A stretch of DNA of 64,000 nucleotides from Candidatus Dormiibacterota bacterium. Its GTDB lineage: Bacteria; Chloroflexota; Dormibacteria; Aeolococcales; Aeolococcaceae. This document shows, in pieces, positions 42,055 through 44,779 of the stretch (positions are counted from its first letter, which is position 1; every line of letters starts with the position of its first letter). The translations under genes were made by a program, and so were the position numbers. Under the pieces are notes generated by a model. It did not search any database and was not told the origin of the DNA. It worked only from the letters and a program-made list of their open reading frames with translations. Location: positions 224,001-288,000 of the forward strand of contig CAVPXI010000007.1 in assembly GCA_963709585.1 (NCBI GenBank), written 5' to 3'.

Positions 42055-42586
42055 ATAAGTCGTGATCCGTACGCCGATCTTCCTCAGGTGCCGTGGTTCA
42101 GCCTGTCGAGCGATGACATCAAGGACGGCAAGCAGTTGCCGTCGGCGCAGCGAAGCGGGATCTTTGGTGCCGGCGGAGAGGACGTGTCGCCCGCCCTCTC
42201 GTGGAGCGGCTTCCCCGAGGGCACGAAGAGCTTTGCTGTGACTGTGTACGACCCCGACGCGCCGACGGCAAGCGGGTTCTGGCACTGGGCCGTCGTCGAC
42301 CTTCCCAGCAGCGTCACCAGTCTGCCGGCCGGCGCCGGTGACCAGGCCGGTCAGCGCCTGCCATCGGGAGCCTTCCATCTTCGCAACGACGGAGGCCTCG
42401 CCGGTTACCTCGGCGCGGCGCCGCCGCCGGGGCACGGCCCTCACCAGTACCACTTCGTGGTGCACGCGGTCGACGTCCCGTCGCTCGGCATCGGCCCCGA
42501 ACTCCACGCCCGCGTTTCTCGGCTTCAATCTGTTCACGCACACGCTGGGCCGCGCGCGCATCGTCTCCTGGTACGAGAACAGCTAG
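42055..42586 (+). CDS. YbhB/YbcL (PEBP/Raf kinase inhibitor-like) protein; ATA start and +1 indel near 42497
   Basis: [30 protein letters not shown]; C-terminus TPAFLGFNL in the adjacent frame. Confidence 0.8.
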
Positions 42587-42602
42587 ATCCCATAAGTTGT
42601 TG

Positions 42603-43805
42603 TCAAGCTAATCCGGCGCTGCCATGCGCCGGATCGAAGTCCTTGTCGCCGCGCCACACGCCCCAGACGATGGCGAGCGCCTTGCTCATGCAGTGACCAA
42701 GGGAGTTCATCGCTGACTTGCCCGCGGCCCGCTTGCGAGCGTAGTGGGCGCGGATGATCGGGTTGTGTTGCACGCCGACCACCGCCATCCGGTACGCCGC
42801 CGCACGCAGATACGAGTTGCCGGTCTTGGCCATGGTCCAGCTCGTCTCGGGGTTCGCACCCTTCTTCCCTGAACTCTGCTCCTTGGGATGCACGCCTGCG
42901 TAGGCGAGCAACTGGTCGACATCGCTGAAGCGCCAGATGTCGCCGATCTCGGCCATGAGTGTGGCCGCGGTGGACGGCCCGACACCGGGAATCGAGAGCA
43001 GCCGCTGCGACACCTCGCCGTCGAGCAGGGAGGCGACCCGGGTGTCCGCGCTGGCGATCTGCTGGTCGAGCAGGTCGTGCTGCGCAATCAGGAGGCGCAT
43101 CTCGAACCCGACCTGCTGCGCGAGTTCCGGCGCAGCCACCGAGGTCTGAGCCAGCTGCTTGAGCTGGCCGGCCTTGAGCGGTCCGATCGCACGGCCACCA
43201 CCGCCCGGACGCTTGAGCCGAGCCAGGCGGTCCTGGTGCATGCGCGCCACGGCCGCGGCGGTCGGCGCGTGGCGGAGCACCGCCAGGGCGCTCACGCAGG
43301 TCGGGTCGTCCCAGACCTCGCGCAGCTCAGGAAAGCCGATGTCCACCAACCGCTGGATGCGCTGGCAGACCTGGGCCTGCTCACGCACCAAACGCATCGC
43401 GAACCGCGCCGCCTCCTTGAGCTCGGCCCCCACCAGGGGCTCGCTGATCCGCGGCTGGTCGTGCGTTCCCAACGCCGCCAGTGTGCGCGCGTCGGCCGGG
43501 TCGCTCTTGCTCCGCTGCAGCCGGCTCTTGGCGAAGTACTTGGCCTGCAACGGGTTCACCACCGCCACCGGATACCCCTGGCGACGCAGGTGGCTGGCCA
43601 GGTTGAACCAGTAGTGGCCGCTCGATTCCATCACCACCACCTCGATCGGCGCTTCCTGCTTCGTCATCCACGCGTCCAGTTCGCCGAAGCCCTTGCGCTT
43701 GGTGGTGATGGTGAGCACCTTCCGATCCGCCTCGCGCTCACCCTGGCGACACACCGCCGCCGCGCACTTGTATGCCCCCACGTCGATCCCCACCGCCAGG
43801 CTCAT
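42603..43805 (-). CDS. IS110 family DEDD recombinase/transposase
   Basis: [17 protein letters not shown] (RuvC-like DEDD); SIPGVG...AEIGD..RF...AYAG..P...SSG (catalytic Ser); RBS AGGAGG. Confidence 0.95.
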
Positions 43806-43844
43806 ACGCACCTCCTGTGTCGGGTTGCGACCCCAGGGGTCCTC

Positions 43845-44020
43845 GCCTTGCTTCGTCGCCGCGTGGGCTGATGCTCCATCACCGGTCACCGCCGTCGGAT
43901 CCCAATCACCGCTCGAAGACGAAGCACGAGGGCCGGTCACTAGCTCCATCGGTCCCGTCGCCGGATAGCTATGCGCCGGTCTCCCCGTCGAGGTCAGATT
44001 CCCCGCGATTCTGACCCTGC
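43845..44020 (-). ncRNA. Putative IS110 bridge RNA
   Basis: 5' hairpin GGTCAGA/TCTGACC; target loop carrying CGCATAGCT and AGCTAG; donor loop closed by TGCTTCGTC/GACGAAGCA carrying TGGGATC and ATCAG; ends approximate. Confidence 0.8.
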
Positions 44021-44035
44021 CAGGAGATATATCAG

Positions 44036-44779
44036 CTATCCGCTGAGCAGGAACTGTTCCGCTTCTCGATACTCGGGATTCTCGGCGACGTGGGTGCCGT
44101 GGGCGATGACCGGATGGGTCCGAAATGCGTCGGCGACGACGTCTGCGCTCAATGCTCTGGTGTCGTAGGGACACACGACTGACATTGGCGTCGAGGCGAA
44201 CGCAAGGTTGAACAACAACTCGTCAGCGAGTCCACGCGATGATCTCCGCGTCGGACCGACCTGCCCAGATGGGCTCCCCCAGGATGCGGACCCAAGATGC
44301 CCCGGCATCGATCTCCTGCTTCACCCATGCGCGATAGCGATCGAGGGCGGCGTTCGGCGAGGTCAGCCAGCCCACCGAGTCCGCGAAGACGACATGACCA
44401 GCGTCCGCCCCGAGTGAGACTCGCAGCAGCTCGATGTGCGCCGCGGACGTCACCGCAAGCGCAGGTTCGGAACGTTCGATTCCTTGGGCAAGGAACGGGA
44501 CGGCCATGGCCAGGAACTCGTCCTCCGACCTGTACGCGAGCACAAGGTGCTCAAGCAGCGGCGGCGAGATCGGCCGGCCCCGATCAGATAGTCGACGCTG
44601 ACGGACAACGCGGTCGCGAGGGCGGTGAGGCTGCTGAGCCGTACGTCCTGGCGCCTGCCCGATTCGATCTGCGCAATGGCCGTCCAGCTCATGCCCGCGT
44701 GGTATGCGAGCGCTTCGCGGCTCCATCCCAGGCGCACCCGAGACGCTCGCAGGGTTTCCCCGATTCGAGACGAAGTCAC
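44036..44779 (-). CDS. XRE HTH + MEDS sensor domain protein; two compensating indels (~44580, ~44223)
   Basis: LRASRVRLGWSREALA...AIAQIESGR; H.VL.Y.S..EF....VPFL..G..R.E; RILGEP.W; VCPYD...THP. Confidence 0.75.

Follow-up and report, generated by a model that had tools for sequence, protein, structure and literature searches.

The 64,000-nucleotide stretch analysed here (the window) carries on its minus strand an insertion sequence of the IS110 group, which consists of a recombinase gene (P0001) preceded by a non-coding left end of 228 nt (44033-43806) and followed by a short right end, with 16 nt between the recombinase stop codon and the CT core. This layout is the one expected of the IS110 group and not of the IS1111 group. 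On the minus strand the element starts with GATAT (44033) and finishes with TATGGGAT (42587), and CT cores lie at 44035-44034 on the left and at 42586-42585 on the right. The left junction (44043-44026) reads CTCAGCGGATAG-CT-GATATATCTCC and the right junction (42596-42574) reads CTTATGGGAT-CT-AGCTGTTCTCG. The features assigned to the element are collected in Table 1.

Table 1. Features of the IS110-group element, its putative bridge RNA and its target in the window, with the basis of each assignment.
Feature	Position	Strand	Basis
IS110-group insertion sequence including right CT, 1,449 bp	42585..44033	minus	Copy comparison, flanks
Left target bases ATAG (LT -4 to -1)	44036..44039	minus	Covariation of LT -1 to -4 with guide
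Left CT core dinucleotide	44034..44035	minus	Flanks; single CT at the L120 empty site
Extended -10-like element TGATATATC (core T, GA, TATATC)	44026..44034	minus	Invariance; putative role by IS621 analogy
5' stem-loop, GGTCAGA 44016-44010 / TCTGACC 43998-43992	43992..44016	minus	Fold; 37 of 38 versions
5' arm of target-loop closing stem, GGGGAGACCGG	43976..43986	minus	Consensus fold; pairs invariant
Left target guide ATAG+CT, same sense as target top strand	43967..43972	minus	Covariation
Loop-1 inner hairpin, CGG ... CCG	43950..43963	minus	Consensus fold
Right target guide GAGCT+AG, reverse complement of CT-AGCTC	43940..43946	minus	Covariation
3' arm of target-loop closing stem, CCGGCCCTCG	43927..43936	minus	Consensus fold
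5' arm of 9-bp donor-loop closing stem, TGCTTCGTC	43918..43926	minus	4 of 9 pairs changed on both sides
Left donor guide TGGGATC, equal to right-end TGGGAT + core C	43898..43904	minus	Right-end classes
Loop-2 inner hairpin, CGG CGGTGA CCG	43883..43894	minus	Consensus fold
Predicted right donor guide ATCAG, reverse complement of left-end CT-GAT	43868..43872	minus	Complementarity
Candidate handshake base C, 3' of right donor guide	43867	minus	Tracking of LT-1
3' arm of donor-loop closing stem, GACGAAGCA	43849..43857	minus	Compensatory changes
3' hairpin GGACCCCTGGGGTC between bridge RNA and ribosome-binding site, without U-run	43829..43842	minus	Fold, terminator scan
Ribosome-binding site AGGAGG	43816-43811	minus	Sequence
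Recombinase gene P0001, 400 aa	42603..43805	minus	Pfam, reading frame, IS621 alignment
TTGACA, putative -35 half of circle-junction promoter, overlapping recombinase stop TGA	42601..42606	minus	Spacing
Right-end terminal bases TATGGGAT (left donor)	42587..42594	minus	Sequence and donor-guide match
Right CT core and right target AGCTG	42580..42586	minus	Flank reading

The reading frame of P0001 is intact over 400 codons and encodes an N-terminal RuvC-like DEDD domain (PF01548, E 3.9e-26) and a C-terminal Tnp domain (PF02371, E 3e-23). Among solved structures, the best matches were obtained with the transposases of ISCro4 (9t56, E 2.7e-26) and IS621 (8wt6, E 4.2e-24). Residues D8, E60, D102 and D105 align with D11, E60, D102 and D105 of IS621, and S312-G313 with S241-G242, so all five catalytic residues are kept; according to the structural work on IS621, its DEDD and Ser residues are essential (Hiraizumi et al., 2024, PMC11208158). 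With both domains, an open frame and the catalytic residues in place, the intact IS110 recombinase announced by the first-pass annotation, which had been made from the sequence of the window alone, is borne out. A second, distant IS110-family recombinase with 27% identity to P0001 is present in three copies outside the window (C7:92955-93782, C14:312850-313677 and C13:147393-148220).

Three identical copies of 1,450 bp were found in the genome, on contigs C7 (the window copy), C4 and C8, with left ends 100% and proteins 99.5-100% identical. Their flanks part exactly outside AG-CT ... CT-AGCT, reading GCGGATAG-CT (44043-44034) / CT-AGCTGTT for the window copy, and TCCGAAAG-CT / CT-AGCTCGG and GCTTATAG-CT / CT-AGCTCAG for the other two. 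Whether further copies have other ends or sit at unrelated sites, a point on which the first-pass annotation had made its reading depend, was thus looked at within the genome: all three have the same ends and lie at AG-CT/CT-AGCT flanks. An empty site was found in a genome of the same genus (L120), where both genes flanking the element in the window are present, the element is absent and the sequence reads ...GTGGATAG-CT-AGCTGTTC with one CT. This site (...GGATAG-CT-AGCTG...) equals the empty target predicted from the window save one base upstream, and both the CT core and the target proposed earlier are therefore real. A single CT at the empty site versus a CT on both sides of the occupied one shows insertion at the core without target duplication beyond the shared CT. 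In four further relatives the left neighbour at the corresponding place differs. In the assembly of a public DNA run the element forms a separate contig of 1,456 nt, whose boundaries show six or more different loose ends; an element present in several copies, each in its own context, is expected to assemble in this way. A metagenome contig (L044) carries a 99.5%-identical element with the right flank of the C4 copy (L002) and a different left flank, which suggests rearrangement or deletion beside the element in another strain.

The window copy sits between two convergent genes with abutting stop codons, and both stops survive the insertion. On the left, the TAG at 44038-44036 (minus strand) ends a piece of an upstream MEDS-domain gene; on the right, the TAG at 42584-42586 (plus strand), the complement of CT+A, ends a gene of the PEBP family. 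The PEBP-family gene (42088-42696, plus strand; PF01161, E 3.5e-36) shows a frame change near 42502, and its true C-terminus, ...YENS-stop, lies in the frame of the ORF 42338-42586. Four relatives of the same genus align over 499 bases against 500 in the window, and the DNA-run contig has one base fewer at 42502; the window gene thus has a 1-base insertion, being either a pseudogene or an assembly error. The MEDS-domain gene (44036-44726, minus strand) is likewise split into two overlapping frames, which match PF14417 positions 2-121 and 105-161. Two successive frameshifts beside the element suggest assembly indel errors rather than decay.

The strings listed by the first-pass annotation, namely the arms of the 5' hairpin, CGCATAGCT (43975-43967), AGCTAG, the 9-bp stem, TGGGATC and ATCAG, all lie on the minus strand where it had placed them, and it had arranged them as a bridge RNA with two internal loops. 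Bridge RNA has been described for IS621 of Escherichia coli (Durrant et al., 2024, PMC11208160; Hiraizumi et al., 2024, PMC11208158). Taken singly, the sequence folds to a minimum energy of -102.1 kcal/mol, which is not significantly below that of shuffles (z = -1.81; 8 of 200 did equally well). In this minimum-energy fold UAGCU of the left target guide (LTG) is paired over 5 bp with AGCUA of the right target guide (RTG), a consequence of the palindromic target AGCTAGCT. Only when the left ends of 50 relatives are folded to a consensus do the loops become visible; both guide pairs then lie unpaired in internal loops that each hold an inner hairpin of 3 bp. Thus the two-loop fold and the position of the guides in loops, both claimed earlier, stand at the level of the consensus and its compensatory changes; the single sequence yields neither a significant fold nor unpaired target guides.

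The structure that was tested comprised the consensus fold and the 9-bp stem of the first-pass annotation. In this structure 93.9% of 1,697 cells were paired, compared to 35-49% when the partners were slid, and 95 cells were changed on both sides versus 32.1 in shuffles, with none of 500 shuffles as high. Of the 9 pairs that close the donor loop, 4 show double changes, and the 5' hairpin refolds in 37 of 38 distinct versions with differing stem sequences. The closing stems of loop 1 are invariant among relatives, and covariation speaks neither for nor against their pairs. A pairing of GGTGAT with ATCAGCC in the consensus fold was excluded from the tested structure because ATCAG occupies the place equivalent to the RTG in loop 1; it could be an alternative conformation. 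An Rfam search of 42400-44300 gave no relevant match at E up to 1, only a chance C/D-box snoRNA match inside the gene.

Relatives were collected from several sources. Among 117 genomes of the same family, a protein search revealed full-length relatives with 67-94% identity in 6 other genomes and one decayed copy, while a genome collection yielded 24 loci, mostly from Candidatus Dormibacterota MAGs, and a metagenome collection 67 loci. The covariation set holds about 60 distinct insertions (protein identity 67-100%). Once duplicates had been collapsed, the set comprised 63 distinct combinations of guides and flanks, of which 61 had a usable left and 53 a usable right flank, with 31 LTG and 33 RTG versions among them; L023 and L054, in which the left guide was mis-parsed, were left out. 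Locus L010, from the unpublished genome G060, accounts for 1 of the 50 alignment rows and 1 of the 63 combinations; no claim depends on it alone, and the permutation results for the target guides are unchanged without its genome. The ends of the element are well conserved: CTGATA was found at the start of the left end in 79 of 83 loci with enough upstream sequence, and TTGAC...TGGGAnCT at the right end in 88 of 95, the exceptions being decayed or truncated copies. One relative (L008 = L028, 2,493-nt contig, 75% protein identity) has a left end of only 150 nt, in which about 12 bases replace the 5' hairpin and the entire target-binding loop, while loop 2 is kept and the site is CT-AG. It may have arisen by deletion, in which case a guide would have to be supplied in trans. 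In L007 and L018 (= L025, L027) the right end carries a 33-bp tandem duplication including TTGAC and TATGGGAT; two of the three copies of one genome have it, and the third (L014) does not.

The match between the target guides and the flanks of the same locus was compared with that between guides and flanks of different loci. For the LTG, the cognate match fractions at left target (LT) positions -1 to -9 were 0.90, 0.89, 0.80, 0.48, 0.18, 0.30, 0.39, 0.44 and 0.41, versus 0.84, 0.30, 0.27, 0.21, 0.25, 0.27, 0.39, 0.44 and 0.41 for non-cognate pairs. For the RTG, the fractions at right target (RT) positions +1 to +5 were 0.91, 0.91, 0.75, 0.85 and 0.70 for cognate and 0.87, 0.62, 0.25, 0.27 and 0.39 for non-cognate pairs. 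Taken together, LT -1 to -4 gave 187 matches out of 244 against a permutation mean of 103 and a maximum of 126, and RT +1 to +5 gave 218 out of 265 against a mean of 132 and a maximum of 156. None of 5,000 flank permutations reached the observed total on either side, although these figures overstate significance and are not true probabilities because related sequences are not independent. The neighbouring positions were at background, with 105 matches out of 305 at LT -5 to -9 (permutation mean 107) and 50 out of 265 at RT +6 to +10 (mean 53).

The same positions emerged from a mutual-information scan without prior choice, in which 175 RNA columns (61-235) were compared with 24 flank positions. 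The top four pairs were, in order, RTG/RT+4, LTG/LT-2, RTG/RT+3 and LTG/LT-3. Columns 112 and 113 paired with RT+4 and RT+3 gave the highest values, with complementary bases, and columns 86 and 87 with LT-3 and LT-2 were also among the four highest. All have the expected sense, the LTG being the same as the top strand and the RTG complementary to it, and nothing outside the two diagonals rose above a background of about 0.3-0.5 bits. As far as sequence comparison can tell, the LTG tracks three to four bases and CT, and the RTG tracks CT and five bases. The 9-nt left guide CGCATAGCT of the first-pass annotation was over-extended: ATAG-CT covaries with the targets, and the guide was cut from 9 to 6 nt because LT -5 to -9 match at background level only. 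Its right guide, AGCTAG, is retained within GAGCTAG (43946-43940), which covaries with RT +1 to +5. The covariation of guides and targets in relatives that the annotation had put forward as a check is thus observed for loop 1, where a change of guide goes with a change of flank.

Nine guide sets are carried by recombinases that are at least 90% identical to each other, all with the same loop 2; the left-guide string of L023, one of the nine, was mis-parsed, and its true guide still differs. From this natural variation, the target guides may be programmable, as the first-pass annotation had proposed. The target recognised by the clade is about 11 bp, (N)NNN-CT-A-NNNN, and since RT+1 is almost always A among relatives, targets nearly always carry CTAG or CTAA. 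L074 stands alone among the relatives in having T, not A, after the target core, and both its RTG (A-AG) and the base after its LTG core (CT-T) are changed to match. This single case hints that the left guide pairs one base past the core.

The donor guides of loop 2 were examined in a similar way. The left donor guide and the right end agree in 64 of 67 loci, in three classes (GGGAT, GGGAC and GGGTT) that vary at two positions, and the TGGGATC of the first-pass annotation, which equals the right-end TGGGAT and C, is supported by this covariation. Disagreement was found in L036, L084 and L085 (e.g. guide GGGTT with end GGGAT or GGGAG), which may be point changes or recombination products of different elements. 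ATCAG and the left-end CTGAT are both invariant among relatives, and the right donor guide is thus beyond the reach of covariation. The earlier assignment of ATCAG to this role keeps its place and its complementarity to CTGAT, with covariation adding nothing; it is a probable guide from that complementarity and from its position relative to the closing stem, which is that of the RTG in loop 1. The position following ATCAG holds G only in combination with C at LT-1 (3 of 3 distinct pairs, from two clades) and holds C in the other 57, which fits the behaviour of the handshake guide described in the IS621 structural work (Hiraizumi et al., 2024, PMC11208158). Two further candidates were rejected. 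The three bases past AG of the RTG (TGA, ACA and others) are not consistently complementary to the donor end and were not assigned a handshake role, and a discontinuous right-donor pairing as in IS621, between GGAG upstream of ATCAG and the left-end CTCC, is not kept by the relatives.

The guides also predict where the element is found in its own genome. The guide-predicted 11-mer ATAGCTAGCTC (ATAG-CT-AGCTC) matches the three occupied sites with 1, 1 and 0 mismatches; the window copy has G at RT+5 where the guide predicts C, and the C4 copy has A for T at LT-3. Among the approximately 352,000 other CT-centred 11-mers of the assembly, none matches perfectly, two have one mismatch and 95 have two, and thus three of the five best-matching genomic sites are occupied. 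CTAG is rare in this genome, with 1,219 occurrences in 3.52 Mb at 66.6% GC. An unoccupied site with the 11-mer of the window target, ATAGCTAGCTG, lies on the minus strand of C14 near 438206.

The two ends of the element would contribute the halves of a promoter upon circularization. The circle junction as read from the element ends is TATGGGAT-CT-GATATATC, and in this order TTGACA lies 18 nt upstream of TATATC, which is preceded by TG and lacks the consensus final T. CTGATATA (TGATATA) is invariant in 50 aligned left ends, and in 55 of 56 distinct right ends TTGACN stands at a distance of 14 nt from the terminus, although the ends had been located using these motifs. By analogy with IS621, in which the right end supplies a -35 and the left end a -10 (Durrant et al., 2024, PMC11208160), a junction promoter would be formed on the circle. 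The predicted bridge RNA transcript would be about 190 nt long, from near 44017 to near 43825. Scanning of the integrated copy revealed no sigma-70-like promoter and no terminator. The assembled contigs of public runs contain no circle junction and no excision joint, an absence which carries no weight because contigs drop rare forms. One RNA-library run yielded contigs of the stretch for 43836-44037 only, and one of them enters the chromosomal flank of the C4 copy; these may represent read-through transcription or DNA, and are evidence neither way.

Taken together, we are confident that the locus holds an intact, recently active insertion sequence of the IS110 group whose left end encodes a two-loop bridge RNA of the IS621 type. 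In the mechanism that we propose from homology to IS621, the element would be excised as a circle, and a recombinase tetramer would hold the RNA while it pairs with target and donor at once. On the 5' side of loop 1, ATAG-CT is identical to the target's top strand left of and including the CT core and can thus pair with the bottom strand, while GAGCT-AG on the 3' side would pair with the core and the five bases to its right. In loop 2, TGGGATC on the 5' side would act as a copy of the right end of the element and the first core base, and ATCAG on the 3' side as the complement of the core and the first three bases of the left end. Ser312 together with the DEDD site would cut and exchange strands at CT, and insertion would therefore occur without duplication except for the shared CT. 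After strand exchange, the C at 43867 would pair with the G at LT-1.

It could be argued that the left end does no more than form a structured 5' leader or promoter region of the recombinase mRNA, which controls translation or stability, and that the matches are coincidental or reflect ends recognised by the protein. The insignificant stability of the single-sequence fold would agree with this, as would the shortness of the individual matches (5-7 nt), an RNA that has no terminator and would run into the recombinase gene, and the lack of an Rfam match. A leader would not explain why, across dozens of relatives, guides and flanks change in concert, with precisely the register and strand sense of a bridge RNA and with nothing at neighbouring positions, nor why three of the five best genomic matches of the guide-predicted 11-mer are occupied. 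We thus regard it as hardly credible. In our view, the evidence beyond chance is comparative, i.e. the covariation and the genome census, and not that of the single sequence.

It is also very unlikely that the element, although a genuine bridge-RNA element, survives only as immobile relics, for example because self-pairing of LTG and RTG blocks DNA binding or because host factors are missing. That UAGCU of the LTG pairs with AGCUA of the RTG in the minimum-energy fold would be in line with such a state, and so would the contigs of public runs, without circle junction or excision joint, and the free site on C14 with the 11-mer of the window target. Against this, the left ends and proteins of the three copies are identical or nearly so, the frame and the catalytic residues are intact, and the 1,456-nt DNA-run contig has the several loose ends of a multi-copy element. 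We therefore retain the reading of a recently active element guided by its bridge RNA.

The positions of the insertions relative to genes deserve attention. In the C4 copy, a 358-codon frame that would end at the target TAG now ends at a TGA formed by the core T and the GA of the element, and in the C8 copy the TAG of the right junction terminates a frame of 211 codons. A coding-like frame (no stop in 60 codons, high third-position GC) ends at the target stop on at least one side in 20 of 56 distinct insertions, versus a baseline of 229 of 1,213 CTAG sites here; this enrichment at gene ends is roughly twofold by a crude test. We tentatively suggest, at somewhat less than an even chance, that the clade is a distinct natural bridge variant, with an LTG of 3-4 nt, an RTG of 5 nt and a near-fixed A after the core, aimed at CTAG or CTAA and with a built-in rule of harmless landing sites. 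The short LTG, longer RTG and near-fixed A would thus make its members aim at the rare stop-codon palindrome CTAG (or CTAA), often at the ends of genes. If so, the stops on both sides would be kept, as TAG at the right junction and as TGA in place of TAG at the left, and the at least nine natural guide sets on recombinases at least 90% identical would offer a ready-made series of reprogrammed orthologues from a high-GC lineage.

Bridge recombinases are under development as programmable tools for DNA insertion, excision and inversion. To these the element adds an orthologue that is well documented and comes from an uncultured soil phylum of high GC, and its relatives amount to a natural experiment, in which closely related recombinases carry many loop-1 guides, each at a matching site, while loop 2 is constant. 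This supports modular target choice outside the Proteobacteria studied so far.

The closest known system is IS621, and the following comparison draws on the two papers describing it (Durrant et al., 2024, PMC11208160; Hiraizumi et al., 2024, PMC11208158). Like IS621, the element has a recombinase with DEDD and Ser, whose five catalytic residues align, a long left and a short right end with a CT core at both, and an RNA with a 5' stem-loop and, after it, two internal loops that each contain a small inner hairpin. In IS621, each loop's 5' side pairs with the bottom strand and the 3' side with the top strand, with the core in both (PMC11208160), and the loop-1 guides of the clade covary with the target flanks in the same strand sense. 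Moreover, the left donor guide follows the right end and ends at the core C, the nucleotide that follows the right donor guide varies with target position -1, as a candidate handshake base, and a putative -35 lies in the right end and a putative -10 in the left end, their promoter role here being by analogy. The IS621-type bispecific bridge RNA with a CT core that the first-pass annotation had recognised therefore agrees with the covariation of loop 1 and of the left donor guide, the layout and the catalytic residues.

Other members of the family are less similar. The ISCro4 transposase (PDB 9t56) aligns with P0001 over both domains in a comparison of the proteins. The IS1111 group with its seekRNA shares the recombinase family and RNA-guided target choice, but its guide RNA lies in the long right end downstream of the gene, according to the legend of Extended Data Fig. 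10 of PMC11208160, whereas here the RNA is upstream. As to whether the element is already catalogued, which the first-pass annotation had left open, the answer is divided. In the searchable part of the supplements of PMC11208160, the conserved RNA 11-mer of the clade, the junction 15-mer and the name 'Dormibacter' are all absent. A limited literature search returned no paper with both 'Dormibacter' and 'IS110' and none linking bridge RNA with CTAG, although preprint orthologue screens (10.1101/2025.05.14.653916) may list the element. On the other hand, Supplementary Table 1 of Durrant et al. (2024) lists in its row 201 a protein from 'Chloroflexi' (00f0820605735e3975, in the tree of their Fig. 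1c) which has no ISfinder name and is close to P0001: judged by eye, its RuvC and Tnp strings share MESSGHYW and long surrounding runs. The clade has thus already been sampled in the published IS110 survey. For that protein the searchable supplements yielded no bridge RNA sequence.

The element is therefore a well-supported further example of a known RNA-guided recombinase, the mechanism and architecture of which are those of IS621 and not new. In comparison with IS621, the similarity of the protein is at the level of domains (E 4.2e-24; 400 aa here versus 326 aa), the base after the RTG is not consistently complementary to the donor, and there is no sign here of the discontinuous right-donor pairing. 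The differences that we consider noteworthy are the short left guide, the longer right guide and the near-fixed CTA. The split of guide lengths is reversed, since the LTG here comprises three to four bases and CT and the RTG CT and five bases, while in IS621 the LTG is A50-U58 (9 nt) and the RTG G77-G80 (4 nt) (PMC11208158), and unlike in IS621, RT+1 is almost always A, giving targets with CTAG or CTAA.
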